A stretch of 35,501 nt of DNA, from assembly GCA_900128565.1 (NCBI GenBank), contig LT635943.1, forward strand, positions 1-35,501, in the 5' to 3' direction. The translations under genes and the position numbers were made by a program. The notes beneath the pieces are model-generated. The model worked only from the letters and a program-made list of their open reading frames with translations, searched no databases and was not told where the DNA came from. Each line of letters begins with the position of its first letter. The first letter of the stretch is position 1. The stretch is from Stramenopiles sp. TOSAG23-6. Taxonomy: Eukaryota. Of the stretch, positions 1,293 through 35,501 are shown in pieces.

Positions 1293-2469
1293 TTAATCAA
1301 ATCCTTCAACGTTTTTATGTTTTACAACATATCCACCCATATCTCCAGAACCCTGTTCGACAGTGTATGCCCAGTCTTCAAATCCTTTTACATGAAGTTT
1401 ATCTTTTGAAAGCCCTGAGTCTTCTTCTTGAAGTTTAGCAGGATGACTTGAACCACATTCATCTCCATACACTGACATAGCACGTCTATATGTATTTTAG
1501 AAAAATATTTCAAAAAAAAATCGTTACGTACAAAATTTCGTACGAAAAAAAAATCGAATTTGAAAAAAAATAAAACATACATATTTTTGAAAAAAAATAA
1601 AACATACATATTTGTTCACTTAATCCGAACATTGGGGTCGGTTGACCAACTCTCTTTGACATTTGATCACCAATATTAAGATCTTTACAATGAAGCTTGA
1701 TTTCAAATCCTGGATCGAAACTTTGGTTATACATTAGAGGAACTTCAGTTTCAAATACATATGAGTTTCCCGCCGAATATCTAACACCATCAAAAAATTT
1801 ACGTAAATCTACACCAGATTTTTTTGCTAACATTGCAGCTTCCCCAGCAGCAATAAGGTGGACTCCGGCTAACTGATTTGTAATAATTTTAACAACAGAC
1901 GCTGCTGGAGTATCTCCCATCCGCAGAACTGTGTTTGCATAACACTTCATCAAAGGTTCCCATTGATTTGATAGGGTCTCATCACCCCCAACTAAAACAG
2001 TCATCATTCCAGCTTGTAATAATTGCAACCCACCTGTTAATGGTGCTTCAAGAGAAGGTATTCCTTTGGCTTTAGCCAACATATGCAGTCTTGTTGACTC
2101 ATCTGGATCTGTGGTTGTATGATCTATCCAAGTTGTTGCACCATTTGAGTCTGCAAGAACATCCAGTAAACCACCAAAATCAGTACCCTCGCCTTCCATA
2201 ACTAGGCGAACATGAGGAGGAGCAGGCAAAGCAGTGATCAAAACATCAGAACCAGTTGCTGCTAAAGACGGAGTATCCACCCAAGTTCCACCTGCAGTTT
2301 GTATTTCCTCGCGATTTTTGTTTGATACGTCAGTCACCAAAACTTCGTGACCTTCTTTGAGCAAATTAATTGCCACGGCACGCCCGATTTGGCCTGCACC
2401 AACAACACCAACTTTTAATGAAGATGTCGCAATTGAAGACAAACAACGAGATATACACGGAGAGAGCAT
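1293..2469 (-). CDS. NAD(P)-dependent beta-hydroxyacid dehydrogenase (3-hydroxyisobutyrate dehydrogenase/tartronate semialdehyde reductase family); exons 2469-1610, 1491-1293
   Basis: Motifs VGVVGAGQIG (Rossmann), EAPLTGG, VKIITN and KDL. Removing 1492-1609 gives in-frame ...EQIYRRAMSVYGDECGSSHP... (352 aa). The N-terminus resembles a mitochondrial transit peptide. Confidence 0.85.
1492..1609 (-). other. Non-canonical intron (AT...AC, or GT...AT if shifted 2 nt), 118 nt, with duplicated 5' end
   Basis: Sense strand: CAAAT|ATGTATGTTTT...TTCGTACGAAATTTTGTACGTAAC...AAAATAC|ATATAGA. Removal restores the frame. Confidence 0.85.
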
Positions 2470-2572
2470 GGTATTCAATATTGTCCAAATATTGTGGAAT
2501 TAATAGTAGGTAGTACTTTCGTAAGACTTGTGTCTTGATCGTCGTCTTCTGAGATTTTTGACCGAATGGTTG

Positions 2573-2582
2573 GTTACCCGGT
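2573..2582 (+). promoter_or_regulatory. GTTACCCGGT intergenic motif (Reb1-like), copy 1
   Basis: The identical 10-mer also occurs at 8021-8030 and 27911-27920, each upstream of gene starts. Confidence 0.5.
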
Positions 2583-2865
2583 AATCACCCAGTCAATTAT
2601 TTTTTTTTGTCGTGATGTCCAACACGAACAACAACAACAAGTTCTCCAAACCTACTATACGTATACGTACACCTACCAAGGTTTGTTGTTGCGGATATTG
2701 TTCATCACTGACCTAATATCATTATAGTCAGATTGCCAATCGAGTCGTAGGTACATTTTTATTGACGTTCATAGCAAAGACTTTGTAGCGCACCGGAAAA
2801 GATTGTAAAGCAAAACGCTGACTTCAAGGTTCTCCACGTTACATTACTTTATAGTATTAAATATA

Positions 2866-3285
2866 ATGAATACTTCTGCAGTATCCGCCGCAACTCGCCT
2901 GTATACCCCTGTAACTCCGCATCTATCCACTGAATCATTCGAAGGTGCCTATCAAGATGAAAAATTTGTTGGTGAAATTATTCACCTCAAAGATAGTTGC
3001 TTTATTTGGTTGGGTCTTCCGACTGACATTCCATGCTTTTCAACTCTTGTTTCTGCGGTCAAACTGAATGGTCTAAATAGTTCTGTCGCAGCTACTTCAT
3101 TATTTTGTGCCGGGAGTTCTAGCTTGGATACAACTACTTGTGAAACACTTGGAAGTAGGATAACTGTGAAGACAGGAAAGCATACAACTATATCGTGTAA
3201 CTTACCACCTACCACTTCACCGAGTCTCGTTAAAATGGCAGAGAAAATAATAATAAGTCGTCTTAAAGAAAAGTCTATTCAGTAA
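2866..3285 (+). CDS. PSMG4: Proteasome assembly chaperone 4 (PAC4)
   Basis: 139 aa with the PAC4-type pattern LKDSCFIWLG...ATSL...LGSRITVKTGKHTTISCNLP...AEKIIISRLKE. Confidence 0.75.
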   Translation: MNTSAVSAATRLYTPVTPHLSTESFEGAYQDEKFVGEIIHLKDSCFIWLGLPTDIPCFSTLVSAVKLNGLNSSVAATSLFCAGSSSLDTTTCETLGSRITVKTGKHTTISCNLPPTTSPSLVKMAEKIIISRLKEKSIQ

Positions 3286-3373: not shown

Positions 3374-5275
3374 TTAAAAAAATCCACTAAGTGCGCTTTT
3401 TTCTGATTTTTCATCTTTGGAACGCGTAAATCTATTAGCAGTAGAGTCGCGATGTTTTCGTATTGCAGCGTCTCGTTCCTTGGCTAATCTCTCTTGCTTA
3501 AGCTTCCCTGTTGTATCTTCTTTCTCACGCTGAAGTTGAGCCATTCTGTTGACAAGACCAGACGTAGCATTACCATCCGCAGCTTCTCTCTTTTGCCTTT
3601 GTACTTCTTTCTGCACTGCTGTGAGATCTTTATGAAGTTGTCGAATGTTCCAAACACCAGTACCAGTATCATAGTATGCAGAAAGGTCTTCATCTGTTGT
3701 GTATGAATCTAGTGATTTTAATAATTGCCACTGTAACTCAGGTGAAATCTTTGTGAAATCTATTTTTTCTGGCGGAATTTTTTCCTCTGTACTGTCAATT
3801 GTATCTTCTTCTTCTTCAGGATGTAACATTCTCCACGATTCATAATTTGGATGTTCTTTATGAGATTCTCTTCTATTTTCACACAACCAACTATTAAGTT
3901 GTGTTTCGGATAATTGAGAGGGTGGTGGTTGATTTTCTATTATCTGCCATTCTTCATCAGTTCGCTCTATCTCCACATCGGCAACAACCATAGCTTTTGT
4001 TTCATTCAACACATCACCATATAAGTCATCATCTTCATCATCATCATCATCACTAAAAACAACTTCTAATGGATTTGAATTCTCATTAAGAAACGAATGA
4101 ATTCGATCTCGGACTAAACTCATCATTTCTTTACCTTCCACCTGACAATGTGTACCATGAAAACAACATATAAATGCATGAACATCAAATACTGCTTGTA
4201 AAGAACCATCTTTTAAATTGCGAAACACTAATGAAGGTGTCGTATGTGTTGAACTCCAACGGGTTGGACCTGTGTTGCTGGAAAAATATTGTTTTACTCT
4301 ACATTCGTTAGGTACAAAATTTAGTATGAAAAAAAAATAAATTTAAACATAAAAATGAAAACATACCACATCCTGACACTCCTCGCTCCCAATCCTGTAC
4401 CTCTAATTCAGCGTATATATCAGAAATACGCATATCATGTGTTAGACGAGCAGTACCAACTTTTGCCCCTGTACAACAAACTAAACACCAACACTTTGCA
4501 AAAATAGTATCTGATGAAAAACGAGGAGCATCGAACCATCCAGTTGGACAACAGGGGAAACATTTACCTGTTTGTACCATATTACTAGTGCTTCTACATC
4601 GAATACATTCTCCAAATGTTTCACAACAACTATAACTAGTTTCTTCTATAGTGCATCTATCGTTTACTTTATCGAAAGTTATAGTTCGTGAAGGAGGAAC
4701 ACAACAACCACAACAAAAAGAAATCCAGAAAAAGAAAAATGTATTTTCTAAAAANATTTNAAAAAAAAAAAANCTAAANTTTGTTAGGTACAACATTTCG
4801 TATGAAAAATAAATTCGAAATTGAAAAAAAAATAAAACATACATACAAGCCACCACCAAGAGTTACCACCGAAACCCTCTATTGCATCGCGGTCTACATA
4901 TGTATGGTTTAACATAAGTGATGCATGACCATTACTAAATAAAGCAGAATTCAAAGCTTGAAGAGCTTTCCATTGTTGTGCTTCGCCATATTGTGGAGAC
5001 CAAGAAATTTTGTCTCCCATGTTAAAAGCAATGAGCCCATAGATCGACATGATGAACCAGAGCCATAAGATGAACCATATTAGTTCGGACAGGATTTTTG
5101 AAGAAACTGGATGCGTCTTGATTTCAAGTACTTCAAGATTCTGTGAAAATTCAGCAGTTTCCAGGAAAGCCCACTTATTATCAGTATGAGGTCTTGAAAC
5201 ATTTGTATCGGTTGGTCGCAAATGCCGAAACTCTGGATGGGTTTTGGCGTATCGCTTTCTAATAAATTTTCTCAT
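3374..5275 (-). CDS. Hypothetical membrane protein with Cys-rich middle and acidic/coiled-coil C-terminus; exons 5275-4845, 4740-4367, 4269-3374 (start uncertain)
   Basis: Three ORF-track fragments join in frame once introns 4741-4844 and 4270-4366 are removed; hydrophobic helices lie in exons 1-2. Confidence 0.7.
4270..4366 (-). other. Canonical GT-AG intron of the same sequence family, 97 nt
   Basis: Sense strand: TGTG|GTATGTTTTC...TTCATACTAAATTTTGTACCTAAC...CAACACAG|GTCCA; phase 1, in frame. Confidence 0.85.
4741..4844 (-). other. Non-canonical intron (AT...AC / GT...AT), 104 nt
   Basis: Sense strand: CTTGT|ATGTATGTTTT...TTCATACGAAATGTTGTACCTAAC...AAAATAC|ATTTTTC; joins WWWLV to FFFFWIS in frame. 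Contains Ns. Confidence 0.8.
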
Positions 5276-5650
5276 CTGATAACTAGCATAGTAAATAATA
5301 CAGAAAAAGTAGCATATACACACAATATAGTCAGATTTCTCGAAATAGTCTTATATAAACATGTAAAAAGCAGAGAATTGGCGGTACTCTTTAAATAAGA
5401 AGAAGGTATAGTCGCGACATCACATCATTGATTGATCGTTTTTTGTCAATTTGAATCCGACAGACCTGTTTTCGTTTTTGTTTAAAAGAAGAAAAAACTG
5501 TGTTTTTCAAACTGGATGAAGCTCTCTTCTTCTGCTGCATACACACACACAAACTCTCTCTCCGTCGGGGTATTATTACGGTGTGTATCTCTGGTGTGGT
5601 GGTTATTCGTCCTTGAAGTTTCCAAAGTAGCTGTATAATTAAAAGATCAA

Positions 5651-7773
5651 ATGTCAGGATATGTTAGACGCTCAGTTCGACGTCCAGGTAGTCAACAGTT
5701 GGAACGGAGTGATGTGAAACGACTTATTCACCTTATTAAGAACAACGACCGGTCCATTAAAGTACTTCGCCTGAAAAACTTTTTATTAGCTGAACCGAAC
5801 CAAGTAGTTATTGAGGCTGTTCTGGATGCACTCTATGACAACGCCGTGGTTGAAGTTCTATACATACAGAATTTTATACATTGTATTTACTACAAAGATA
5901 TTGTAATAATGCTCACTCAACACTGCTCTTTGTCACTCACTTTTATATACTTATTTCACAAATATTACGCACATTATATGAAAAGGCAATGTTAGATCCA
6001 CAGCTTGAAAAGCTCGCTAAAGTCCTTAGACGAGGGAGAATCTGGGCTGTTAATGTAGGTGAAAACTTTAGCATATCTAATAAAGCATGGGCTAAATTTG
6101 CTGAGGAGTTGCAGTTCACAAATATTACACATATGTATGCGAATAGTGAAACAACACTTCCTCCAGAAATAAAACTTCGTATGCGTAATGTAATACGGAA
6201 TAATCGTAAAACAGATCGACGACATCGTTCTTTACAGCACTATGATGTAATTAAAGAAATTGGTCAGATGTGGTGGAATCCGAGACTTCCAATTTGTCGT
6301 GCTTTGGCAAGAAATTCAAAAGTAGCTTGTTGGTCATGTTATAGTAACATTGCTTGCGACACTATCATGCACTGTTCTGGATACGGCTGTCAAGCTCAGT
6401 ATCATTTAGACTGTTTAGAAAAGGATAAAATTTTAAGATTTCAGTCAATGAAAAATGAAGATAAAACTTCAAATTCAAATGATAAAATAAATGTTTTGAC
6501 TTCAAAACCTGCAGAATCTACTTTATTGATGTCAAAAAAGGATAATAAATGGTTTTGTAGTTTCTGTCTAGATAATAAAATATCAAAAAAACGAGGAAGA
6601 ATTTCTACTATATCTCAAGAATCAAGAAATAGTTATAAATCAAAAAATGCACGAAATGAAAGAAACAATGATAAGTTTTTGAGTATATTAGTAAAACGAT
6701 GCTCAACTCTAGGTCGACGAATTATTGTACGCATGACAGACAATGAGGAAATAAACACAATTAACAGTAGTAGGAACTCACAAAAAAGTATAATTAAAAA
6801 AAGTGATAAAACAGAAAAATCCTTTATTGGAAAATGTCAATTCCGTAAAAAAACAGTCAATGTATCTCTGAAAAATAGCAAAAAGACAAATAATCAAAAT
6901 TCTTTTCAAAACAACAACCATAGTTATGTAAATAATTGGCGTATTGGTCATATAATTCGTCAGAAAGGTCGTTGTGGACCCGTTTTAGTACATTTTCCNG
7001 TCCAAAATAAAAAAGCGAATAAAAAGTCTAAAAAATCTTGTATTGAAGAAAAGTGGATTTACTTAGATGGACGTGATAGTTTTAGTTATTGTATTGGTAC
7101 AGAATTCGTTTGGGCAAAGTTATCTTTCAAAAATGGATATCATACCCTCTCAAATGTAGATGATATTGAAACAACAGATCATATATGGTGGCCAGGTGAA
7201 GTATTTTCTTTTTCTGAAGATTGTTGTGCTGAAGTAAAGAAAGAACGCAATGGTGAAAAATTTATTGTTTTATTTGGAAAAAATGACAATTTTGATAAGA
7301 ATAATCAATGGAAGACTTCAATGTTATCATGTATACCTAACATTTCATCATGTATCTTACCAATGCATTCTACTTGTACTACAATGAAAAATCAATCAAA
7401 TAATTTGGAAATAGAAATTATCAATGAACATATTTATTGTAAAAATAATGAAAATAATGAAGCATGGATTGCAGCACTCAATCAAGCAAAACATGAACTA
7501 GGTGTACAATACAAACTACAACAAAATCAAATTGCTGCTGAAAAGTTACGTCAAGCAGGTGAAATTGCTAAAAGTTCTACACCGAACAAAGTTTACCATA
7601 GTACTTCAAGGTCTACAGAAAATGGACCACCAAGTCCTGGACATGCAAAAAAAAGGAGAATTCAAAATGATGAAATGGTTGCTAGAGCTCTCGCATTTGC
7701 TGATCGTTCACTGCAAGAAAGACAAATTGCAACACTTGCATCCACCAAAGCCAGTTTAAAAAAACAAAAATAA
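5651..7773 (+). CDS. Putative chromatin protein: LRR-like N-terminus, PHD-like finger, PWWP-like segment; one intron at about 5876-5979
   Basis: Overlapping ORFs 5651-5995 and 5881-7773 need an intron. PHD-like CWSC...HCSGYGCQAQYHLDC...WFCSFC; PWWP-like EFVWAK...WWPGEV. Confidence 0.7.
5876..5979 (+). other. Probable non-canonical intron, boundaries ambiguous
   Basis: The frame changes between LYIQNF and EKAMLDPQ across an AT-rich stretch. In-frame solutions include 5876-5979 (AT...AT) and 5883-5974 (GT...AT). Confidence 0.55.
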
Positions 7774-7825
7774 TAAAGCTTTGTGCTGCCGACGAACAAA
7801 AAATAATAAAGCTTTGTGCTGCCGA
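7763..7825 (+). repeat. Tandem duplication of about 30 bp spanning the stop codon
   Basis: AACAAAAA(A)TAATAAAGCTTTGTGCTGCCGA occurs twice. Confidence 0.85.
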
Positions 7826-8020
7826 TGACATTTGTCTTCAAGACTTTTGTTGAATCCAATAGTAAATATAATATCAACTTTAAAAAAATCCTTTAAAATG
7901 TCTTTATAAAAAAGTTATATATAATATGAAATTTCTAATTTATGTTTTGTAAATGATGATGGAGGAAAAAAAGAAAAGTTAAAATTTTCATAAAAACAAA
8001 AAAAAGGTTCAAAAATTTGT

Positions 8021-8030
8021 GTTACCCGGT
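8021..8030 (+). promoter_or_regulatory. GTTACCCGGT intergenic motif (Reb1-like), copy 2
   Basis: About 100 nt upstream of the PUS10 ATG; identical to 2573 and 27911. Confidence 0.5.
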
Positions 8031-8122
8031 ACTTTATAGTCAGCTTTTTTCTCACAAAAAAGTCACCATAATATTCGAAATGCTTTTTATATATTTGTGA
8101 AATTGAGAGTGTATTTACAATT

Positions 8123-9670
8123 ATGACTTCACCCTCAAATGTTTCACTTGCAGATACTGCTGCAAAGTTGGGTTGTTGTCCAGCTTGTGTCTTTAGATTA
8201 ACGGCATCTTCCTCTAGTCTTTCCAATACGTCTTTTATTACGCCAGTAGATCTATCTACCTCAGATCAGCGTTGTATCGCGTGTCTTGGATTGCTACAAA
8301 AGCCAATGGATGAAATTGTGGCTCTTGTAAAAGACAAGGTTGTACAAGGAGGATACAAGCTTAACAAGAGTATTGTCGTTGATTTTTCATTACCCCCTTC
8401 GATATTAGTTCGAGAGTTTAGCATATGGCTCCAACTCGCTAAGACTCATGGCTCATCAGTATGTGGAGCCCCTCCAAGTTCATCGTCCTATTCCAGTCTT
8501 CGCTGTTTGAAACTTGCTATTCGAAATCGACTGAACCCATTATTAGCTAGTGCATTGGGTGTACCTGTAAGAGTTGCTTTAAGGAAACCTGCAGACAATA
8601 AAAAAGATGTACCTGTGGGTCAATTTAATATTCATATATTATTTGACCACTCAAAATCACAGGCTGAGTGTGTAACTATAAACCCTAAAAAATCTGATAA
8701 TAATCAAAAAAGAAGTCGTAAACGTAGACGTATTGAAACTACACCAAAAGATACAATTGCATCTGTTGTAAAAAACTTGCGTAATTTTGGTATCATGGTT
8801 GTTCAAAAAGGTATAGATGCTGTAATAGCTATGCCTGGTTTCAACTCGTCTCTAGTTGTAGTAGATGAGGCTCCTTCTTATGATATTGTTCTTTCTCGCA
8901 GCCCTATATATTTGATGGGTCGTTATATGAAGTATGCTCGTGGAGTGAGTCAATCGCCATGGTTTATTGATAATAAAAGAATGGCTGATACCTCAGTTCA
9001 TGAACTAATTGCAATAGCACCACTCAATCATTTTGGCGTAGACAAAGATTCATGTAAATTTCATACTGCAGGTCGAGAAGATGTTGATGTTCGTATGCTT
9101 GGTCGTGGTCGTCCTTTTGTTCTTGAGATTTTAAATGCTAAGCATGCATCCTGTACCCCGAGTGATTGTGTGAAATTAACTGATGAAATCAATGCATGTG
9201 CACCTGCTGAAGCTGTAGTGTCGACTGTAGATCATAAGAAATACAATGGTGCTGTTCAAGTACGTGATTTTTGTTTGTCGTCTCTTGCTGCATTTGATTT
9301 ATTAAAAGCTGGAGCTGAGTCAAAACGAAAGACATATTCTGCAGTATGTTGGATATCTAGAGATATTTCACAGGAAGAATTAAATTCAAAATTAGCAACA
9401 CGTAAAGATGTTTCTGTAAAACAATTGACACCTATCAGAGTCATGCATCGACGTACGGTTATGGTAAGAGATAAAATTGTTTATAATATTCAATGTAAAT
9501 TCATAAATAAGCGATGGTTTGTTTTAGAACTGGAAACTTCTGCGGGAATGTATGTTAAAGAATTTGTTCATGGAGATTTAGGTAGAACGACTCCCAATGT
9601 TGCTTCGATATTAGGCAATGACTGTAAATGTGATATCATCCAATTAGATGTTATGGAAGTACTGATGTAA
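8123..9670 (+). CDS. PUS10: tRNA pseudouridine synthase Pus10
   Basis: Hallmark motifs GRYMKYARGVSQSPW, AGREDVDVRMLGRGRPFVLE, QLTPIRVMHRR, AGMYVKEFVHGDLGRTTP, LDVMEV. Confidence 0.95.
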   Translation: MTSPSNVSLADTAAKLGCCPACVFRLTASSSSLSNTSFITPVDLSTSDQRCIACLGLLQKPMDEIVALVKDKVVQGGYKLNKSIVVDFSLPPSILVREFSIWLQLAKTHGSSVCGAPPSSSSYSSLRCLKLAIRNRLNPLLASALGVPVRVALRKPADNKKDVPVGQFNIHILFDHSKSQAECVTINPKKSDNNQKRSRKRRRIETTPKDTIASVVKNLRNFGIMVVQKGIDAVIAMPGFNSSLVVVDEAPSYDIVLSRSPIYLMGRYMKYARGVSQSPWFIDNKRMADTSVHELIAIAPLNHFGVDKDSCKFHTAGREDVDVRMLGRGRPFVLEILNAKHASCTPSDCVKLTDEINACAPAEAVVSTVDHKKYNGAVQVRDFCLSSLAAFDLLKAGAESKRKTYSAVCWISRDISQEELNSKLATRKDVSVKQLTPIRVMHRRTVMVRDKIVYNIQCKFINKRWFVLELETSAGMYVKEFVHGDLGRTTPNVASILGNDCKCDIIQLDVMEVLM

Positions 9671-23051: not shown

Positions 23052-23300
23052 TTAAAAATTGACGGAAATAATGTATGATACAATCTAAGGTGAAGCATAT
23101 TGGGACGTTTCATAATGACATTGATCGGAAATATTTTTATTTATTATCACGTGATTGTCTCAATGTAATGTAATCATTTATGTAACAATTTATTTTTCTT
23201 TGCAACTCAAAATAAAAGAAGAATTAGTAAATTTCTTTTTATTTTTTGTCTCTATTCAATTGATCAGTATATATACAAAATAGCCAAGTAATTACATAAT

Positions 23301-24011: not shown

Positions 24012-24594
24012 GCTGTATTTTTAATGAAAGCTTATTGTTTGAGTAGGCATGACGTGGTTACTCAATTTCCGAAGATCTCTGGTATCAATCTTTAATGTTG
24101 AGATAGTGTTGGTGATCAGTGTTGGTTTTCTTTTATTGCTGTGTTGATTTAGATTGTAAAATAATTATTGTTCATGTTCTAACATGTGTGGCTGTCATAT
24201 TCTAAGTCAAAACCCCAACCCTACATCCAATAATTCTGGTACTAGTTTTTTGTAGCTGGTTCCTACGTTAAACAAAGCTAGCTGGTTCCCTGATCTTAAG
24301 ATTAGTACACACGAGTTGTGATATTCACCCCACCCACCACCACCACCTTCTTTAATGAATTATGGTACACTTTAGATGCCTTTTTATATTAAATTTTAGC
24401 AAAGCTACCTGATGTTTCGATAACATGCAACGTTGAGTTATTAAAATATTGGCACAATTCGTCAACAGCACCTATTTTATTTCGAAAAATCAAAAAATAA
24501 TTAATAAAAAGAATGATTTTTTATAATATTTTCAACATCAAATAGTATGATTATTCCCTATATTTGAGTATAAATGAAGTGCTTGAGTTTGACA

Positions 24595-25323
24595 TTACAT
24601 TGTCGATTCTTTGGTAACAAAGCATGGGGAAAATAATTTTGAAAATAGATTTTTTCTTTTTTGTCCTGACGTCATACTGTGGCGGCTTTGGGATATACGC
24701 GCGGCTTGTTTTTGTAAGAGATAATGTATCTTTGCTTCTTCTTTAGCTGCTTGTATAGCAAGAAGTCCTTCACCAATAAAAGCTAGCTGAAAAGCAGATA
24801 ATTTTTCTCCTGATGTAAATGCCTTTTTCCACTGTTGAGAAAGTAGTTCAACATGAACATCATTAATATCTTTTCGATGCAATTCATAATTTTTCGCACC
24901 ACAAAGAAGAGGATGTCTAAGGACATTTGCGAATTCCATTGCATGGTTTCTTCGATGAACTGCTGCATTAAGAATTGGATGAGATAAGGTAGGCAAAAGT
25001 TTCACTTTGTGATCTTGTTTCTCTTCCCTTGAACGTTTAAAATTATCAGCTGAAAAAGGAACTTTTTCATGAACACGTTGCATAGCACTCATATGACGAC
25101 GACGATAAGATGTTCGTTTGCACAAAGACATATATGATTTGGGGACTTCTTCGTGTACAAAACGAAGGGTTGTTGCGTGAGCACTTCTGGCAGCTGCAAC
25201 GGCTTCGTCATTTTTTCTCTTTTTCTCTTTTTTTGCACTTTTTGTTTGAATTAGATTTGATGAAAGCTTCTTAACCATTTTACGGAATACACCTTTTTTT
25301 TTTGAAACGTGTGGTGAACCCAT
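24595..25323 (-). CDS. Hypothetical basic protein, 242 aa
   Basis: ATG-initiated 729-nt ORF flanked by AT-rich spacers; no recognisable domain. Confidence 0.55.
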   Translation of the reverse strand: MGSPHVSKKKGVFRKMVKKLSSNLIQTKSAKKEKKRKNDEAVAAARSAHATTLRFVHEEVPKSYMSLCKRTSYRRRHMSAMQRVHEKVPFSADNFKRSREEKQDHKVKLLPTLSHPILNAAVHRRNHAMEFANVLRHPLLCGAKNYELHRKDINDVHVELLSQQWKKAFTSGEKLSAFQLAFIGEGLLAIQAAKEEAKIHYLLQKQAARISQSRHSMTSGQKRKNLFSKLFSPCFVTKESTM

Positions 25324-25668
25324 ATTGGTATGTGCTGTTCGAAAAGGTCACGAATAATGTATATTATACGTAAATGATCTCGATAAGAAAGGGATATATC
25401 GCTCTCTCTCTCTCAAGGTAATAAAGATCTCTCTCTCCTTGTCAAGCAAAGCTGAGGAGGATTCTTCTTCAAGATTTCAAAAAATTCGTCAGCTGCGTTT
25501 TTGGCGCGCAAACCTGTTTTTCTTATAAAGAGTCAGAGAAGCGGAGAGACATGACCGACTCCACTCCACTACCTATTATTTCATAATAACTCCTACAAGC
25601 TAATAATTACAAGGTTACTGCTTTCATTCTCCGTTCAAGATTTTGTAGAATAGCTGTTTTTCTCTAGT

Positions 25669-27171
25669 ATGGTAAACACAGTATATAGTGTATCTGAGAA
25701 CGATAATGGTCTAATGTTAGGTTGGCGAAGTAGTAGTGACGAATCAGACGAGAGTGACACAGATATTTGTGAATCATCGACAGATTCGGGAGTATCTGAT
25801 CTTCTAAAGGATGCAACTTTATTACAAGAAAATGCGCTTACTCAAGAATGTCTTGACAATGTAGAAAAAAAACTGAAGTCGGCATTACATGCAGCAAGCA
25901 TGTCTTTGGATCCATCGTGTTATGCTGGTGTAAGAGACAGATTGACACTACTATTATGCCAGCAAGGTGAGAGTCGTACGGAAGATGCATTACGTTTGTT
26001 GCGTTCGGGAGGTTATTTATATAGGTTATCACGAGGAGTTTTACATTACAAAGAAGCTTCTCAAGTAGAAAGTGAAAGAATGATCAAAACCTGTGCAGAT
26101 GATTCTCTACAAGAACAGTGTTCAAAAGATGAAGTCCAATATCAAAACTTTATAACTGTGCTGGATAATGCAATACCAAGTAAAATGTTTCGTGTAGTTC
26201 AAGAGGCATTTGCACCGACTTCTCTATTTTGGGAGGCACATAACTATGGTTCAGATAATCAAGGTTATTTTTCATATCTTCATCCGCTACAGCCAATTTT
26301 AACTGCAACAAAAAATGCAAATTCTAATATGCCTATACTTGAACAACTCATTTCTCATATATATAGTCTTGCAGTTATTCGTTTTCCACAACTCAAAAAT
26401 GCAAATTTTGCAGAGTGGTGGGCCCATTGCCGACCTCACTGTTCTGGTCATCAAATGCACTATGATTCAGATGCAGAAGGGGAATCTACTGGAACTGGCC
26501 CGCGACATCCAATACTATCTACTGTTTTATATCTCACTGATACTGTCGGTGGACCCACATTAGTCACAACACAAGACCGAAGAGGGAGTACACCTGAAAC
26601 ACTTGCATCACATGGTTGGATGAGTTACCCAAAGATAAATAGATTAAGTATGTTTGATGGTGGAGTTTTACATGGAGTGATTCCAGGCCGAGGTCTCCCT
26701 ACAAAACCAAATATAAAGGACAATAAAGAAAACGGTCAAAATGTAAAGTCTCCGAGAAGAATTACACTAATGATTGCATTTTGGAAAGACATTAAATCTC
26801 GACCTCGCCCATCAGATGGTACATTTGGTGCAAGTATGTTGTTTCCTAAAGTATCAAAATTAGATGACTATGATACAAATAAGTCAATGCCGTGTACCAA
26901 AACAATTGAGAAATGGTTGAAATCTTCGGCGACTTGTGTTCCTTTATTACAAAATGATATAATGAATGGTGATAGTACCATTGCTCAGGAAATAAGGCCT
27001 CCATTAATTTGTCCGGTTTGGGAACGTGTTGAAGAAATTTCACTGAATCAACTTGAAAAATCCCATCAAAGTAATGTAGATAAATCAAAGAAGACAATGC
27101 ATGTGAATATACCAAAAGTGAGTGATCTTAAACAGCTTCCCAGTTATCATTTATGTTTTCAAGGATTTTAA
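25669..27171 (+). CDS. 2OG-Fe(II) oxygenase-like protein, 500 aa
   Basis: EWWAH...HQMHYDSD (HxD)...STVLYL...GGPT...NRLSMFDGGVLHGV...RRITLMIAFW: facial triad plus distal Arg. Confidence 0.7.
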   Translation: MVNTVYSVSENDNGLMLGWRSSSDESDESDTDICESSTDSGVSDLLKDATLLQENALTQECLDNVEKKLKSALHAASMSLDPSCYAGVRDRLTLLLCQQGESRTEDALRLLRSGGYLYRLSRGVLHYKEASQVESERMIKTCADDSLQEQCSKDEVQYQNFITVLDNAIPSKMFRVVQEAFAPTSLFWEAHNYGSDNQGYFSYLHPLQPILTATKNANSNMPILEQLISHIYSLAVIRFPQLKNANFAEWWAHCRPHCSGHQMHYDSDAEGESTGTGPRHPILSTVLYLTDTVGGPTLVTTQDRRGSTPETLASHGWMSYPKINRLSMFDGGVLHGVIPGRGLPTKPNIKDNKENGQNVKSPRRITLMIAFWKDIKSRPRPSDGTFGASMLFPKVSKLDDYDTNKSMPCTKTIEKWLKSSATCVPLLQNDIMNGDSTIAQEIRPPLICPVWERVEEISLNQLEKSHQSNVDKSKKTMHVNIPKVSDLKQLPSYHLCFQGF

Positions 27172-27353
27172 TTATTTTTTATAAGGCTGTAAATAAAAGT
27201 ATGTTATCACTTATAAAAGAAGTATATTTTCAAAATATACTATAGACAGTACTTTTATTTGCAGATGGTACATTTATGGCATATACTTGAGTGAGAAGAG
27301 TACATATCAGTTGATATAAAATACTTTTATTCATTTTAATAATATGTTATTTA

Positions 27354-27821
27354 TCATCGCGGTAGCTTTTCATTGGCTCTTATTGGTACAATCAAATGCA
27401 ACCGAGTAAACTGCCATAATGATAGCCCTGAGATTATTATGAATATGAGTCCGAAAACAACTCTATAAACAAATCCAGTATCTTTTTCAACATCTCCAAG
27501 TTCTTCTATTTGTTTTTCCACACTTTTTGTTGCAGGACCACGAGGACAAGAGACTATGAATAAAATAACAACTAAAAGAATACTGCTTCCAATCGAACAG
27601 AAATAACAAAACTGGCGATGTAGTATTCCCCAAAGAGTAACACCGACACAACCAAGTAGAAATAATAATATGACAAAGACTCCAACACCAACACCAAGTG
27701 GACGTGGACCTGTAATTGCATCGTCCTCAGCTGCAAGAACTCTATAACAACTAAGCATCAAAAGGAAACTCAAATATGAATACATTTTATGTGTTGAAGT
27801 TGAATAGAATTTTGATTTCAT
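27354..27821 (-). CDS. TMEM218: TMEM218-like ciliary transition-zone membrane protein
   Basis: LGVGVGVFVILLF, three TM helices, PR motif after TM2, D..FVYRVV and C-terminal PIRA match the TMEM218 pattern. Start may be a downstream ATG. Confidence 0.6.
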   Translation of the reverse strand: MKSKFYSTSTHKMYSYLSFLLMLSCYRVLAAEDDAITGPRPLGVGVGVFVILLFLLGCVGVTLWGILHRQFCYFCSIGSSILLVVILFIVSCPRGPATKSVEKQIEELGDVEKDTGFVYRVVFGLIFIIISGLSLWQFTRLHLIVPIRANEKLPR

Positions 27822-27910
27822 TTTTATCTACGTTGTAGGGAAAACCTACGACCACTGTCAGTTTTATAGAATGAAACAAACAACCGTTACTTGCAAGAAA
27901 CGCTTAGTAC

Positions 27911-27920
27911 GTTACCCGGT
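27911..27920 (+). promoter_or_regulatory. GTTACCCGGT intergenic motif (Reb1-like), copy 3
   Basis: In the divergent promoter between the TMEM218-like gene and COX10. Confidence 0.5.
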
Positions 27921-28050
27921 CCACCGCCAACCGGATTGCAAATTGACAAGCACGTGTTGCGAAACACATACAAAACAACTTTGGTTTTTTAGCTATCATT
28001 CATTGTAGTTATTACGGTAGAGCTACAAGGACTGGTAGTATTATAATAAA

Positions 28051-29580
28051 ATGTCACATATATACGTTTCTAGTTTGATGTGTGCGATGAAACAGTCAAT
28101 AAGACCCGTTTGTCGAGCAACTTATATGAACAAAGCATTGCATCCGGGGCATAGAAAAGTGGTGATACGTTCCTTCCCAACAACGTATTCAGCGTCGTGT
28201 ATGAGTTCTTCATCTCGAGTGGTATCATCACAAGTAGTCTCTCCTAGTGTTACGACAGCTGATTCTTCTGCTGTAACTAGGCAAACTCCGCTGTCTGCTA
28301 AACGTGAAAGTATAGGTACATGGATTGGTATTTATAAAGAACTTTCGAAGCCCACACTTAGCTCACTCGTTGTTGGTTCAACTTCTGCTGGTTATTTAAT
28401 GGCCGGTGGTCCTATTAATGCTACTGCACTTGCAGCGGTATGTGTTGGTACTACTCTCCAAGCTTGGAGTGCAAATACATTTAATCAGGTTTGGGAAGTA
28501 AAAAATGATGCATTAATGAAACGAACTGCTCGTCGTCCTATGCCGACGGGTAGGATAAGTGCAGCTCACGCCTTGACGTGGGGTTGTTCATCAGGTATAG
28601 TAGGTACTGGCATTCTTCTTGCTGGTTGTAATCCACTGACAGCTAGTATAGGTGCCCTAAATATTGCATTGTATACTCTCATATATACTCCAATGAAAAC
28701 AAGAAGTAGATGGAATACTTGGGCTGGGTCAATTGTTGGTGCTTTACCTCCAGTGATGGGTTGGACTGCAGCTGGAGGTTCTTTACTCTCACCAGAACCA
28801 ATGCTTATTGGTACAACTTTATTTTTATGGCAGTTCCCTCATTTTTTTTCTCTTGCGTGGCGTTCACGATTGGATTATAAAGCCGGGGGGTATAAAATGG
28901 TCCCTGTAATGGACAAGTCTGGTCAGTGGACATCTTCTTTAATAGAACGATATATAATGTATATAGCACCTTTACCATTATTATCTAGTTACTTTGGTCT
29001 AACATCAGGAATGTTTGCAATTGAGAGTGTTGTTTTCAATGGATATTGGTTATGGATGGCACGAAAATTTTCAAAGAAGCGTACAAATAAGCATGCACAG
29101 CAGGTATTTCGTGCTTCATTGTGGTATCTTCCTGTGCTTTTAACACTTATGGTGTATCATTCGAGGAATTGGGATGAGACGAACAATTCAAAATCTAAAA
29201 GTCAAATGACAAATCTGATGGATAATGATATAAATAGTGCTTTTGATCTTAGCACAAAAGGTGCAAGAATTCGTGGCGATAAATTAGGTTTATGGGCAGA
29301 AGAAAAACTTGGTGAAATTAGATCTCAAGTATCTTCTTTATGTCCTCATGAGTGGATTGTGAATACTCCAGAAAATAATATAGAAAATACTAAAGATGTG
29401 AACAAACCTGTTATCATGAATGATTGTGTTGAAAATTCTAGTGGATTGCCCTTAGCTGACGATGATACTCCATTGACATCAACACCATCATCATTACTTA
29501 TTTCATTATGTCCTTCTGTGTTTTCGAAAACAATGAATAGTTTAGATGAAACTGTTACTGTTGTAGAAAAAAAGAAATAA
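28051..29580 (+). CDS. COX10: Protoheme IX farnesyltransferase (heme O synthase), mitochondrial
   Basis: Motifs ELSKP, ANTFNQVWEVKNDALMKRTARRPMPTGRIS, YTPMKT, NTWAGSIVGALPPVMGW, WQFPHFFSLAW, DYKAGGYKM. Confidence 0.95.
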   Translation: MSHIYVSSLMCAMKQSIRPVCRATYMNKALHPGHRKVVIRSFPTTYSASCMSSSSRVVSSQVVSPSVTTADSSAVTRQTPLSAKRESIGTWIGIYKELSKPTLSSLVVGSTSAGYLMAGGPINATALAAVCVGTTLQAWSANTFNQVWEVKNDALMKRTARRPMPTGRISAAHALTWGCSSGIVGTGILLAGCNPLTASIGALNIALYTLIYTPMKTRSRWNTWAGSIVGALPPVMGWTAAGGSLLSPEPMLIGTTLFLWQFPHFFSLAWRSRLDYKAGGYKMVPVMDKSGQWTSSLIERYIMYIAPLPLLSSYFGLTSGMFAIESVVFNGYWLWMARKFSKKRTNKHAQQVFRASLWYLPVLLTLMVYHSRNWDETNNSKSKSQMTNLMDNDINSAFDLSTKGARIRGDKLGLWAEEKLGEIRSQVSSLCPHEWIVNTPENNIENTKDVNKPVIMNDCVENSSGLPLADDDTPLTSTPSSLLISLCPSVFSKTMNSLDETVTVVEKKK

Positions 29581-29888
29581 ATTGAATAATTTGTTGAAAG
29601 AAAACAATTTTAGAAAATATTATAAAAATCAAAGATAAAAAATCCATTTTTTTTGTTATTTTTGTTAAATTTGATTTCGATGGATTTCGTGATATGAATC
29701 ATATGATATCGATATATCGATATTATAATATCAATCAATAATTTTGGCGCCGAATTTTTTTTTTGATTCCTCGTTTTTTGGAATGTCGAGAATGGTTCGT
29801 GGACAAAAGAGAGAAGTGAGAGAGATACAAAAGCTTCACACAAGTAAGAATCGTAACTTTCTGAAGAAACTTCAAATTAACAGTGAAA

Positions 29889-32542
29889 ATGTTTGTTGTA
29901 AAGCGATCAGGAGAGAAACAGCCTGTGCAATTTGATAAGATTACTGCTCGTATCAAAAAGCTATGCTGGGGTCTTGCTATCGATCCAACTTTGATTGCTC
30001 AAAAAGTTGTCATGGGTGTTTATCCTGGTGTGACAACCGTTGAACTTGACCGTCTTGCTGCTGAAACTGCTGCGTACTCAGCAACTGAGCATCCAGATTT
30101 TTCAAAGCTCGCTGCTCGCATTGAAGTATCTAACCTTCACAAAAATACTCTAAAGAGTTGGGCAAAGACCTGCAAAGTTCTTCACTCGTATGTTCATCCA
30201 AAGACAGGCCTCAATGCCTCTCTTATTTCCGACGACGTGATGGAAATCGCAGAAAAGTATGCTGATCAACTCGACGCAGCTATTATATATGATCGTGATT
30301 ATGATTATGGTTACTTTGGATTCAAGACCTTAGAGCGTGCATACCTACTACGTGTAAACGGAGTAATTGTTGAGCGTCCTCAACACATGCTCATGCGTGT
30401 CGCAGTTGGTATACACAAGGATAATATTCCAAAAGTTTTGGAAACGTATGAAATGATGTCAACTAAACATTACACACATGCAACACCAACCCTATTTAAT
30501 GCTGGTACTCGACGCCCTCAAATGTCATCCTGTTTTCTCATGACTATGAAAGAAGACTCTATTGAAGGAATTTATGACACTCTTAAAAATTGTGCATGCA
30601 TCTCGAAGTATGCTGGTGGTATTGGTATTTCAATTCACAATATTCGTGGATCTAACTCCTATATTCGTGGAACCAATGGTTCTTCAAATGGTCTTGTACC
30701 AATGTTGAGAGTTTTTAATGATACTGCTCGTTACGTTGATCAAGGGGGAGGAAAACGAAAAGGATCTTTCGCTGTTTATCTCGAACCTTGGCATTGTGAT
30801 ATTCTTGAATTCCTTCAACTGAAAAAGAATCATGGTAAAGAAGAAGCGCGTGCAAGAGATCTCTTTTATGGACTTTGGGTTCCTGATTTATTCATGGAAC
30901 GCGTTCAAAAGAATCAAGATTGGAGTCTCTTCTGCCCAAATGAATGCCCAGGTCTCGCTGATTGTCATTCGGAAGAATTTGTAGCTCTTTATACTAAATA
31001 CGAAAACTCAGGCAAAGCTCGTACAACGATGAAAGCTCAAAAACTTTGGTTTCAAATATTGGAGTCTCAGATCGAAACCGGAACTCCCTATATGTGTTTC
31101 AAAGATGCTTGTAATAGCAAATCTAACCAAAAAAATCTTGGAACTATCAAATCGTCAAATCTTTGTACTGAGATTATGGAATATACTTCACCAGATGAAA
31201 TTGCTGTCTGTAATCTTGCGTCTATCAATCTTTCCAAGTTTGTTGATGCTAAAAATCGAACATATGACTTTGAGAAACTCGTCAAGGTGTCTGAAATGTG
31301 TGCATATAATTTAAATCAAGTCATTGATTTGAACTACTATCCAGTTGAAGAAGCTCGTAATTCAAACATGCGTCATCGACCAATGTATGTTTTATTTTTT
31401 TTCAATATCAATTTTTTTTTCATACGAAAGTTTGTACCTAACGAATTTTTTTTTGAAATATTTTTCCAAAATACATTGGTATCGGAGTTCAAGGTCTTGC
31501 TGATGCTTTTATGCTTATGAAATATCCTTGGGAATCTCCGGAAGCGAAACAATTGAACAAAGATATCTTTGAAGCTATTTACTATGGTGCCATGAAATCA
31601 TCCATTGAATCTGCTAAAAAAGATGGACCGTACTCTACATTCCAAGGATCACCTCTTTCTGAAGGCAAGTTTCAATTTGATTTATGGGGTGTCACACCAG
31701 AATCAGGTCGTTTTGATTGGGATGCTCTTCGTACTGAAGTCATGAAACATGGTGCTCGTAATTCACTTCTCATTGCTCCTATGCCAACAGCTTCTACTTC
31801 TCAAATATTGGGAAATAATGAATGTTTCGAACCATACACTTCAAATATTTATTCACGTAGAGTTCTTGCTGGTGAATTTACTGTTGTCAATCGACATGTA
31901 CATTATCATCATTTATTTCATTTTTTTTTTTAAAACAAAAATCCTACAATTTCACAAACCTAACGAATTTTCAAATATAAAACAACATATTGTTTAACAA
32001 CACAGATGCTTACCGAACTAATTGACTTGGGCCTTTGGACACCTGAAGTTCGTAACCAGTTAATTGCTGATGGTGGCTCTGTTCAAAATATTCAAGGAAT
32101 TCCTGATGAGACAAAACAATTATTTAAAACTGTTTGGGAAATTAAACAAAAGTGTTTACTTGATATGTCAGCTGATCGTGGTGCATATGTATGTCAGTCA
32201 CAGTCTCTTAATGTTCATATGGCTGCTCCTAATACTGGAAAACTCACATCAATGCACTTTTATGCATGGAAAAAAGGACTGAAGACTGGAATGTATTACC
32301 TACGAACACGACCAAAAGTTGATGCAATTCAATTTACTGTCGATCAAGCTTCATTGAAGGTCACTCGAGCAATGAAAGACACTACTATCTCTGGCACAGA
32401 AAACAAAGCTCCTACAAATGTTTTGAAAGTAAAAAAAGAAAGTGCATCAAAATCAGCGCCTGGTAGTGGAAGTTGGAGTAAAGCTGGACCAGTTGCACCG
32501 TCTAGAAATGAAGTTGAAGAGTGCTTGAACTGTGGATCCTAA
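29889..32542 (+). CDS. RRM1: Ribonucleoside-diphosphate reductase large subunit; exons 29889-31382, 31475-31897, 32006-32542 (817 aa)
   Basis: ATP-cone [34 protein letters not shown], spliced [36 protein letters not shown]-terminal CLNCGS. Confidence 0.97.
31383..31474 (+). other. Non-canonical intron (AT...AC / GT...AT), 92 nt
   Basis: CGACCA|ATGTATGTTTT...TTCATACGAAAGTTTGTACCTAAC...AAAATAC|ATTGGTATC; exact removal restores the highly conserved RP-IGIG. Confidence 0.92.
31898..32005 (+). other. Canonical GT-AG intron (degenerate family member), 108 nt
   Basis: CGACAT|GTACAT...ACCTAACGAAT...CAACACAG|ATGCTT; gives VNRH-MLTEL and removes an in-frame stop. Confidence 0.88.
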
Positions 32543-33054
32543 GAGACGTGTACTGTGTGTACGACGTAGACTAGAGCATTTGCAATTTTACGATGTTGGG
32601 TATTTCTACGAGCATCCAACTGTTCATCAGAGTAGTAATATATGTTGATTATTTCTTTTTTTTATATTAATTGGCATACATAAAATTATTCAAAAAGACG
32701 ATTGCTATCATATTCTTTTTCATTTACTTTTTTTGAACTCTTTTGCGTAAAAAATATTTTTTAATACAATGAAAAACATAAAAAAAGATAAAGTAACAAA
32801 CAATAATAAACAAAAATAACCAGTCAAGACCATTTTACTGATAAAGTGCACTTACACCACCACAAAATAATATAAATAATAATTGTGTTTTGGTCTAAAG
32901 TAAGTAATAATATATAGCTCAAACTAAAACATCTATACGACATACTAAAAATGTACATCATATACTTGCATTAACTTGAACAAATTATTTGCGACATATT
33001 CTTAAATGAAAACATCTAAATATACGTCACCAATTCATGAAACCAATACATTGA

Positions 33055-34233
33055 TTAAGCCGCGATTGGAGCCTTGGAAGCAAGTGGACCAAGAGTCTTA
33101 TCTTTTTCAGCAGCAGTTTGAAATCGACCGTGACCAAATTTGGAAGACGTATCGATAAAGGAAAGAACAATTTCTTCACGAGCTTGAATAGAGACATTTG
33201 GTACAATGCTTTTACGGAGAGTGATGACACGCTTCTTGCAACCTACAACACAGCCCTTGAGCATAATCCAGTCATTACGGACAATACCGTAGTGAGGGAA
33301 ACCACCCATTGGAGTGATAGATTTAGCTGTGAGATCAACTTCTGTGGAGCATGAAGTTTCATCTCCTTTCTTACCGATGCGGTAAATCTTCTTGTTGACT
33401 TCGGTACGGTGATGGTAACCATTCTGACCAGCACGAGCAACAGAGAATGACATACGAGCAGGATGCCATGAACCAATACAAGCGACCTTGCGAAGACCAC
33501 GGTGAGTTTTTCGTGGAAGACGAGATGTTCCCCAACGAGTTGTTACACCTTCAAATCCTTTACCCTTGGTTACACCAATGCAATCAATCATTTCATCCTT
33601 GTTGAAAACGTTATCAATTGGAATTTGCTGTTCGAGAAGAGAGGTAGCAAAATCAACCTTTGCTGCAACATCACCACCGTTAATTTGGATTTCCATGACG
33701 TGAGCTTTCTTCTGGCGGAGGTTGAGTTCCTTCATCTGAGTGTGCGCGATGACACGGATGACTTGGCAGTATTTCTTCATGCGAGCAAGCTCATTGTTAA
33801 TGTCCTTCTCGGATTCAGTACCGTACTTCTTAGCAAACTTGGTGAAAGCTTTTTTCTTGGAAGCGTACCAGTTCTTGTAGAAGCGGCGTCTGACGCAATC
33901 ACTCAAGTGCTGAGCCCAGACAGTGGTAAGAGTACGGAGGCCACGTGGAGTTTCGACGTAACCAACAACTCCTACAACAATCATTGGTGGGGTTTCAATA
34001 ATGGTAACAGCCTCAACGATCTCTTTCTTGTGGAGACCAGAGCCAAGACGGTCAACAGTGCGCTGGATGTGAGTCATACCAGCCTTGTAGCCCATGAAAG
34101 CGGTAAGGTGAGGTGCGACGGAAACATCATCCTTTGGAAATTTACGGATGCGACCACGGTGACGTGCGCAACGCTTACGTGGGAGGAACCCAAGGGAACC
34201 ATGACGAGGAGCTTCGAATTTACGGTGAGACAT
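33055..34233 (-). CDS. RPL3: 60S ribosomal protein L3 (uL3), intronless
   Basis: [21 protein letters not shown]...GYKAGMTH...[16 protein letters not shown]...[13 protein letters not shown]. Confidence 0.98.
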
Positions 34234-34537
34234 TTTAGTTTATAGTGGTGTTAAGTGCTCAGAACAACAAAAAAACAACCACACGAGACAGCGACAACCA
34301 CTCTTCAAAAGTCGCGTGTGACTGACTACATAAGCAAAAATTCAGAAAAAGCAGGTTTGCGCAAGAATTTTTTTTTCTGAAACGTCCAAAAAAATAAAGA
34401 GTTTTTCAACTCTTCTTTTGAGTTAATCCAATAGAGCTACTAATATTTATCATATAGGTAGTAAACAATTTAAATTCATTCTCCCAAGGACATGTTCTCA
34501 TGCATCATTCAACATGTCATGAATACTAAACTGCGTC

Positions 34538-35501
34538 ATGCGTAGTAGAATATCCAGAGTCGAACCTGATATAATCATTGATACCAATGATCGACATTGC
34601 AAAAATGGTAAAGTTGTGCCGACAAAAAACAGTGATACTGAAAAGGCTGCTATCCCTTCCCTACCATCAATAAAACAACCACCAATAAGCGACGGAGTAG
34701 TTATAATGAAACAACAGCTAGCAAAAATGAAACGAGATCATCTTTTCTATTTAAATCGTGCTACGTCACCTTGGATGCTTTGGTGGGATATATATATCAT
34801 TCTTCTTTTAGTATACACTGCTATAGTCACCCCCTATCAAGTAGGCTATCTATCACCTGAGTATAATATTTTTTTTTACATTGATCGTCTGATTGATTGT
34901 AGTTTTGCATTAGATATGGTATTCTGTATATTTACAGCAATATGGGATGAAGAAAATGAACGATGGGTTTATGACCACAAAGCAATTCTTTCTAATTACT
35001 TTCGGTTTTGGTTTTTTATTGATTTTGTTGCAATCATTCCATTTGACTGGTTTGCTTTAGCAGGTGAAACAAATGGTGAAAGGGTACCTCAATGGATGGT
35101 TTATATGAGAGTTTTACGCCTTACGAGATTATTGCGTTTGTTTAAATTATTTGGTTTGCTTCAGAAACGAAATTACAATGTATACTTTGGAATTTCATAT
35201 AGTATGTACGTTTTCATTAGTAATTTCAAATTATTTTTTTCGTACGTAATTTTGTACCTAATGAGAAAACAGTGACATATTTTACACTACACATGATTTC
35301 TATATCAAAATGTGTTTGTATAATTGCCGTTGTAGCACATTTATCTGCTTGTTGTTGGGGTTTAGTAGGTAGTATTGAATTAGTTGATTGGACTGGATGG
35401 TTCGTTCATTATGGTATACAAAATGATACAGAAGTTTATATGTTTTCAAAATTGGATTGTTTACCTACATTTTTTTTTTTTTTTTGGTAAAAAAATTTTG
35501 A
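34538..35501 (+). CDS. Cyclic-nucleotide-regulated/EAG-like cation channel, 5' part (runs off window); exons 34538-35203, 35293-about 35435
   Basis: S1-S4 motifs WDIYIILLLVYTAIVTPY, IDCSFALDMVF, NYFRFWFFIDFVAIIPFD, LRLTRLLRLFK; S5 AHLSACCWG after the intron. Confidence 0.85.
35204..35292 (+). other. Non-canonical intron (AT...AC / GT...AT), 89 nt
   Basis: TATAGT|ATGTACGTTTTC...TTCGTACGTAATTTTGTACCTAAT...CTACAC|ATGATT; phase 0, joins to the S5 helix frame. Confidence 0.82.

Follow-up and report, generated by a model that had tools for sequence, protein, structure and literature searches.

Short, similar introns with a candidate non-AG 3' splice site form a spreading family in a stramenopile contig

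The introners of Micromonas pusilla and Aureococcus anophagefferens number in the thousands and, according to the available text of PMC11282704 and of the surveys PMC9860276 and PMC12130899, are short, similar introns with GT/GC-AG ends in which the element brings one splice site and the duplicated target holds the other. An intron family that resembles them was characterized here in the window, that is, the whole 35,501-nucleotide (nt) stretch of contig LT635943.1 from Stramenopiles sp. TOSAG23-6 (assembly GCA_900128565.1). Eleven introns (i1 to i11, Table 1) were located, and 10 of the 11 belong to one sequence family with lengths of 85-118 nt. There is good support for identifying it as a spreading family of Introner-type introns. 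As in the accounts of Micromonas and Aureococcus, the copies occupy unrelated genes and one copy of a repeat would leave with the element. In contrast, the parts of those accounts that were available describe canonical ends (for example a 3' AG derived from a TCA duplication), duplications of at least 3 nt and clear inverted repeats, whereas the present family has a 2-nt AT repeat, an inverted repeat of 4-6 nt and, as read below, a non-AG acceptor.

The tunicate Fritillaria borealis has introns derived from miniature inverted-repeat transposable elements (MITEs) with AG-AC and AG-AT ends (available text of PMC11282704), and its non-canonical 3' ends are linked to divergent U2AF paralogues in the accessible part of PMC13326754. 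The likeness, as far as these texts go, lies in transposon-like introns whose boundary within a target repeat breaks the GT-AG rule, in the common AC and AT 3' ends and in the tolerance of non-AG acceptors; however, the 5' end in Fritillaria is also non-canonical, whereas the donor of the present family is a perfect GTATGT. For the introners of Amoebophrya, a parasitic dinoflagellate, the available portion of PMC7789003 reports hairpin-forming inverted repeats of 8-20 nt, direct repeats of 3-5 nt and end dinucleotides that vary greatly, and U1 was not detectable there. These too are repeated, non-canonical introns whose direct repeats overlap the exon/intron borders and leave the cut site ambiguous (PMC7789003); relative to that partial description, the present family has no hairpin and combines a conserved donor with a conserved branch site, both conventional. 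A stramenopile introner family with GT-AT or AT-AC ends does not appear in the literature that was searched, although the supplementary tables of the two surveys (PMC9860276, PMC12130899) might list one. One study of single-cell genomes from uncultured stramenopiles refers to introns in its methods only.

A repeat search linked eight places in the window, six in one orientation and two inverted, and all were alike once oriented by the host gene. With a slash marking the border between exon and intron, the shared reading is AT/GTA[TC]GTTTT, a T-rich spacer, C[AG]TACGAAAnTTTGTACCTAAC, a second T-rich stretch (often TTGAAATATTTTTCCAAAATAC) and then AT. The family donors are GTATGTTTT or GTACGTTTT. 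In those full-length copies for which the branch-like motif TACCTAAC was located, its distance from the 3' end is 25-45 nt. When the window was searched with the family profile using nhmmer, 10 copies were recovered with E <= 1.6e-7, and the next match had E = 0.049. MAFFT alignment gave identities of 84-92% for i1, i3, i6 and i8, 74-81% for i2, i5, i7 and i9, and 56-74% between i4 or i10 and the remaining copies; these groups look like subfamilies of unequal age. The 10 copies are spread over seven genes, and every one of them is in sense orientation relative to its host gene (two-sided P = 0.002). An earlier note on this DNA had described introns of unrelated genes as sharing length and internal sequence and as occurring in each of the three phases, and the alignment and the profile agree with it; among the 11 introns, three are in phase 0, five in phase 1 and three in phase 2. 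To the eight non-canonical introns of that note are added the GT-AG family members i2 and i10 and the non-family intron i11.

The note had also assigned the layout AT[GT...AC]AT to seven of the eight non-canonical introns. This was found to hold: seven read AT[GTAY...AC]AT and the exception, i7, reads AT[GT...AC]TT. The dinucleotides on the two sides of the 10 copies are AT...AT in seven, with AT...TT, AT...AG and TG...AG in one copy each. AC occupies positions -4/-3 in all nine full-length copies. AT forms the last two letters of the 5' exon in nine of the 10 family copies, although its frequency among dinucleotides is 0.089 (P of about 3e-9).

The reading frames define what has to be removed. 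Excision of GT...AC alone breaks the frame in 8 of 8 cases and was rejected, whereas removal of the core plus 2 nt, with introns at the places that the note had claimed, opens all seven gene models; the chance of one rule fitting eight of eight frames is 1.5e-4. The frame of i1 opens only when the core plus 2 nt is taken out. Removal of i8 from the gene of ribonucleotide reductase R1 (RNR) restores RHRPIGIGVQG, and the motif RHRP[IV]G.G[VI]QG is present in 108 of 120 homologues. The spliced RNR has 817 amino acids and no stop, and is 81.7% identical to its nearest relative (P0002) over 777 amino acids, with both junctions gapless. Furthermore, no GT/GC-AG pair with the family donor leaves the open reading frame (ORF) intact at i8. 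The i7 junction in ornithine aminotransferase (OAT) is gapless against 120 homologues, where canonical alternatives would lose 5-6 residues. There is a strong canonical alternative for i9 (GTATGT...AAACAG, 71 nt), but of 131 homologues, 110 give a better alignment with the product of the family rule and 14 a worse one. Purely canonical gene models for i7, i8 and i9 are ruled out by these homologues. The restoration of the ORF in 8 of 8 cases and the gapless alignments at i7, i8, i9 and i10 suggest that the copies are removed from the mRNA.

Where AT stands on both sides, the AT-AC, TG-CA and GT-AT registers yield identical mRNA, and it is the copies with broken symmetry that are informative. 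The GT-AG register of i10 gives VVNRH/ML; among the 94 of 120 homologues that matched the pattern (26 did not), 80 have H, 10 have Y, 4 have F and none has Q. This leaves only GT-AG for i10, since Q is what the AT-AC register would produce. For i2, the register 2 nt upstream would place a TGA in frame. All 11 introns begin with GTA in the GT register, with the good donors GTATGT, GTACGT, GTACAT or GTATTT. Since the GT-AG members i2 and i10 fit it, the splice register is probably GT...(AC)AT/ rather than AT-AC, in which case the intronic copy of AT would be the 3' splice site. Read in this way, the acceptors are CAT/ in seven family copies, CTT/ in one and CAG/ in two. Two copies contain an AG further upstream. 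Combining the family donor of i3 with the AG 9 nt upstream of its end would bring a TAA into frame, and the upstream AG of i6 would break the frame; with either AG, only weak, shifted donors would keep the ORF open. These upstream UAGs would have to be bypassed, provided that the genes work.

The possibility was considered that the non-canonical copies are AT-AC introns of the major spliceosome (/ATGTATG...AC/AT), in which the pair of first A and last C stands in for the usual G/G pair; i2 and i10, being mutated, would alone have moved to GT-AG. This alternative is unlikely, yet it accounts for several features of the family. Compensation between the first A and the last C is established for AT-AC introns. 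Read in this register, all eight non-canonical family copies begin with AT and end with AC, and by its termini i7 fits AT-AC better than GT-TT. Moreover, the junction residue of i7 would be L in the AT-AC register and M in the GT-TT register, and L is the commonest residue among the homologues (L in 84, M in 32, others in 4; n = 120). However, the nearest OAT relative (P0122) and three more of the closest twenty homologues carry M. The AT-AC register is excluded for i10 by the residue Q (0 of 94 homologues) and for i2 by the in-frame stop, so that two members are GT-AG with a register shifted by 2 nt. Elsewhere it would use the donor AUGUAU in place of a perfect GUAUGU 2 nt further in.

Introns with AT-AC ends are U12-type or, rarely, U2-type. 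A U12-type intron is marked by the donor [AG]TATCCTT and by a branch site, TCCTTAAC, placed 10-20 nt before the 3' end. The family copies have no ATATCCTT donor and no TCCTTAAC near the 3' end, and in the long copies where a branch motif was located it is spaced 25-45 nt from that end; a U12-type intron was therefore rejected, and the likeness to AT-AC introns lies in the one reading of the eight copies that gives AT...AC.

Copies outside the window were sought in two independent seawater DNA metagenomes, X3 and X4, whose contigs were mapped on positions 15600-35501 at an identity of at least 90%. In X3, where 5799 contig pieces mapped, the summed depth in the three bins with i5, i6 and i8 was 5085-8438 as compared with 4-11 in unique bins. 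The corresponding values in X4 were 1827-2732 and 0.3-7. The X3 bins with i7 and i9 had depths of about 400-500, and the bin with i10 had the depth of unique sequence, with no excess. The several-hundred-fold excess points to thousands of copies, although the summed depths pool all organisms in a sample, possibly including relatives, and are not a copy number. Loose contig ends occurred at 16964, 17158 and 31476 (26-27 contigs each, with long flanks and a flank agreement of about 0.4); hence both ATs are common to the copies, and the likeness stops right after them.

Three X3 contigs lead from unique exon sequence into the element at the loci of i6, i7 and i8, and one X3 contig record ends within i6. 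Because X3 comes from another study and year than the likely source run and shows these joins of exon and element, the insertions are not an artefact of the source assembly. A pattern scan of metagenome contigs gave 44 loci, 43 of which were chance matches and one a true copy (L004), located in sense orientation in a DNA-polymerase-like ORF with an exon that ends in AT. The L004 contig, 1076 nt long, is chimeric: about 170 nt are eukaryote-like, and the rest is unrelated low-GC sequence with an adapter-like string at the end. In pattern scans of viral contigs (0 and 5 matches) and of prokaryote genome contigs (5 matches), all matches were due to chance.

The favoured explanation, given about even confidence as a whole, is that the copies belong to an intron element that spreads (an Introner, broadly defined), that was inserted as DNA at AT, duplicating the AT, and that is removed with a CAU/ acceptor. 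Taken by itself, DNA transposition with AT duplication is plausible. The element would bring its own donor (GTATGT or GTACGT), the branch site TACCTAAC, T-rich tracts and the conserved 3' ...AC. It would insert at an AT dinucleotide and double it, and insertion between A and T would produce the identical sequence. The spliceosome would then cut at AT/GT and 2 nt beyond AC (CAU/), so that the element and one AT are removed and the original frame is left intact. Later point changes in the intronic AT would convert the acceptor to CAG/ (i10 and probably i2) or to CUU/ (i7). The exon that follows i10 opens with another AT, as expected of an ATAT target, and i2 would probably have arisen by the same route from a TG target. 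The AG-ended copies are among the more diverged, i10 clearly and i2 less so, and i10 appears to be an old family member; this fits the maturation of old insertions into ordinary introns, two cases being an anecdote. The exonic AT is a real signature of the family. The proposal of the earlier note that one AT is removed with the element to give a seamless intron stands in so far as conserved proteins are restored, but the AT fits three scenarios equally: a 2-bp duplication, insertion between A and T, and a target preference of reverse splicing.

The last of these belongs to an explanation in which the same spreading family is copied via RNA, by reverse splicing after AT, reverse transcription and recombination into the gene, with no duplication. 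The second AT would then be the 3' end of the intron itself and the exonic AT a preferred target. We consider this route unlikely. It would account for the 10 of 10 copies that are genic and in sense orientation, for the completeness of every element as an intron (donor, branch site, T tract), for an inverted repeat that is minimal and forms no hairpin, and for a window with no transposase. However, accepted transposon-type introners are also reported as sense-only in the available text of PMC11282704, and selection against unspliceable antisense copies explains this orientation equally well. Additionally, the window is too genic for a test of intergenic copies, and the GT...AC termini are the same on both strands, as in transposon ends.

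Several observations weigh against insertion as DNA followed by splicing at CAU/. No empty site was found, and no joint of precise deletion was present among the metagenome joints listed. None of the 10 copies in the window is antisense or intergenic; since the window is 83% genic (P = 0.16), the intergenic part of this result is uninformative. Among the 23 translated ORFs or exons of the window that were scanned, none has a transposase domain. The donor of i2 is preceded by TG and not by AT. The inverted repeat is weaker than the earlier note had claimed: ATGTAT...ATACAT, 6 nt including the AT, is present in five copies (i1, i3, i4, i6 and i8), but the others have GT/AC only, and instead of a terminal inverted repeat of about 10 nt or more there are inverted termini of 4-6 nt, whose GTAT part is the donor consensus and would be needed for splicing anyway. 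A terminal helix was predicted in only 3 of 10 folds (i8, i6 and i1) and in none of i5, i7, i9, i4, i10, i11 and i2. Nine of the 10 RNA folds were no better than shuffles (z of -0.8 to +1.6); only i8 was better (z = -3.8), because its target, ACCA-AT-TGGT, is itself palindromic. The element is T-rich on one and the same strand in its two halves, which rules out a MITE-like fold. The Introner/MITE identification of the note is thus upheld as regards a spreading family of high copy number, but not as regards the structure of a MITE. Splicing guided by a hairpin or other structure, of the euglenid or Amoebophrya type, was considered and is unsupported by the folds.

The removal of the copies by splicing meets objections of its own. 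Canonical GT-AG alternatives that keep the ORF exist for i1, i4, i5 and i6; they would delete 2-8 codons (6 in i1) and are compatible with homology, so that the non-canonical assignment of these four introns is based on the rule shared by all eight. No spliced RNA read or contig was seen; among the joints listed for the metatranscriptome contigs X6 and X7, there was none at any intron. Over the elements, contigs from RNA libraries show an excess roughly equal to that in DNA, and one of these contigs runs unspliced into i9.

It is very improbable that the family consists of ordinary old introns that never moved and are alike through long, strict splice signals and AT-richness. Donor, branch site and T tracts are indeed among the best conserved blocks, but the similarity of 84-92% also covers spacer such as TTCAAATTCGA and TTGAAATATTTTTCC, so that within the window it extends beyond the splice signals, to which the earlier note had suggested it might be limited were its reading wrong. 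Moreover, the metagenome excess is hundreds-fold at an identity of at least 90% and has sharp boundaries, and the old introns i10 and i11, presumably still spliced, are without that similarity. Least credible of all is removal from somatic DNA rather than from RNA, as with the internal eliminated sequences of ciliates: the elements are short and AT-rich, occur in any phase and are bounded by a 2-nt repeat of which one copy would be left, but they are strictly in sense orientation (10 of 10) and have intron signals, and three DNA data sets keep them in place, with no joined form among the joints listed.

Somewhat short of even confidence is given to a broader reading, in which nearly the whole intron complement has been replaced by one Introner family with a non-AG 3' splice site. 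Such introns would keep the GUAUGU donor and the CUAAC branch, be cut 2 nt past AC (CAU/, even CUU/) and skip good upstream UAGs (i3 and i6), with acceptor recognition either retuned or set by the element; single T-to-G changes would mature the copies to GT-AG, and the family would be an independent parallel to Fritillaria among protists. If this is true, a free-living, abundant marine protist would join the very few lineages in which introns made in bulk break the GT-AG rule. As only the acceptor is unusual, 3' splice-site recognition would be singled out as the altered step, and nature would have provided a gradation that begins with recent insertions (CAU/) and leads to mature introns (CAG/). 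Furthermore, gene callers that assume GT-AG would frameshift or truncate a large share of the genes (7 of about 21 here), and protein catalogues from such single-cell and metagenome assemblies would be distorted.

Table 1. Introns of the window and sites of a telomere-like motif. Intron coordinates are given in the register GT...NN/, where the slash is the exon/intron border; i1 to i10 are family introns and i11 is a non-family intron.
Feature	Position	Strand	Length (nt)	Phase	Host gene	Sequence and remarks
i1	1490-1607	-	118	1	HIBADH-like dehydrogenase	AT/GTATGT...AAAATACAT/
i2	4270-4366 or 4297-4366	-	97 or 70		shared with i3	AG-ended; GTATGT...CAACACAG/ (97 nt) or GTAGAG/ at 4297 (70 nt)
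i3	4739-4842	-	104	1	shared with i2	TTTTTAG 9 nt before the predicted 3' end
i4	10555-10646	-	92	0	TPR protein	diverged; AT/GTATTT...CACAATACAT/; profile E = 2.3e-9
i5	16865-16962	-	98	1	TPR + Aha1_N	AT/GTATGT...ACAAAACAT/
i6	17159-17243	-	85	0	shared with i5	internal deletion; TTTTAG 35 nt before the predicted 3' end
i7	18640-18735	-	96	2	OAT	AT/GTACGT...CAACACTT/; the only one of the eight non-AG copies without a 3' AT
i8	31385-31476	+	92	2	RNR R1	CCAAT/GTATGT...AAAATACAT/TGG
i9	35206-35294	+	89	2	ion channel	AT/GTACGT...CTACACAT/
i10	31898-32005	+	108	0	RNR R1	canonical; AT/GTACAT...CAACACAG/AT; profile E = 4.5e-9
i11	5883-5974 or 5876-5979	+	92 or 104			no recognizable family membership; GT...GCACAT/ (92 nt) or AT...AT removal (104 nt)
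AACCCTAACCCTA	344-362					
AACCCTAACCCTA	18217-18235					
AACCCTAACCCTA	22163-22175	-				
AACCCTAACCCTA	24211-24223					
AACCCTAACCCTA	30482-30494					

Individual copies show further peculiarities. The 5' end of i1 lies in a perfect 27-nt tandem duplication (1559-1612, minus strand), which creates two in-frame donors 27 nt apart; the second donor, if used, would add nine codons and no stop. Both versions of i2 are in frame, the preceding exon ends in TG and not in AT, and the family profile aligns at full length over 4366-4271. The 27 nt that follow the first acceptor of i2 (4270-4296, minus strand), translated as VKQYFSSNT in the 70-nt model, align to the 3' region of the element (AATATTTTTCCA...CAACACAG). 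Intron i2 is either 97 nt long, or a piece of the element may have turned exonic. Intron i3 holds four N (4755, 4760, 4773 and 4779), an assembly ambiguity within an element copy that is expected of a high-copy repeat.

The 92-nt model of i11 predicts YIQNF-IHLY-EKAMLD, whereas five homologues read YIQNFEKGMLD without gaps and without the four extra residues. Either the 12 flanking nt (ATACAT-T and TA-TAT, at 5876-5882 and 5975-5979) would be translated, or 104 nt with AT...AT ends would be removed; both models are non-canonical. The 6 nt upstream of i11 read ATACAT, that is, AT+AC+AT, and an excision footprint is conceivable as a speculation. The possibility that i11 is an antisense copy of the family was rejected, as nhmmer gave no match on either strand.

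Two further places resemble the element. At 35434-35501 (plus strand), GTTTATATGTTTTCAAAATTGG...TTTACCTACA followed by a T run resembles a diverged family intron in the ion-channel gene, cut by the end of the window; positions 35460-35501 were flagged as repeat when the metagenome contigs were mapped. At 21660-21686, 27 nt within the FKBP coding sequence resemble the branch-site region of the element in antisense (nhmmer E = 0.049), possibly by chance.

The 35.5-kb window, from an uncultured marine protist, has about 36% GC and compactly packed eukaryotic genes, about 21 in number. Pfam and homologues identified, in addition to RNR and OAT, a RING protein, the HIBADH-like dehydrogenase, PAC4, Pus10, TPR proteins, an FKBP with H1 and Tudor domains, Mpv17, UbiA, RPL3 and the ion channel. 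Rfam and tRNA scans of the window gave no match, and exon 2 of the HIBADH-like dehydrogenase, compared alone with PDB, gave no useful match. The best named matches of RNR are stramenopiles (69-72% identity), but Flavobacteriales reach an equal score, so that the taxon signal is weak. One small DNA run of 2015 is the likely source of the window; seawater metagenomes of 2024 contain 38-70% of its sampled words, and two metatranscriptome runs contain 13-15%. The orthologues of the genes at 5651-7773 and 18360-19766 (P0242 and P0122) are numbered g1920 and g1924 in the nearest relative; the two window genes are about 10 kb apart, a hint that gene order is kept in this sequenced relative. A perfect 33-nt tandem duplication at 11269-11334 (minus strand) doubles 11 residues (DIEMDIKKYSS) in a TPR gene. 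Finally, the telomere-like motif AACCCTAACCCTA has seven matches in the window at two mismatches or fewer, as compared with 0.43 expected. Six of the seven are intergenic and fall in four clusters, and the match at 30482 lies within the RNR coding sequence. The intergenic clusters suggest a promoter or terminator box resembling the plant telo-box.

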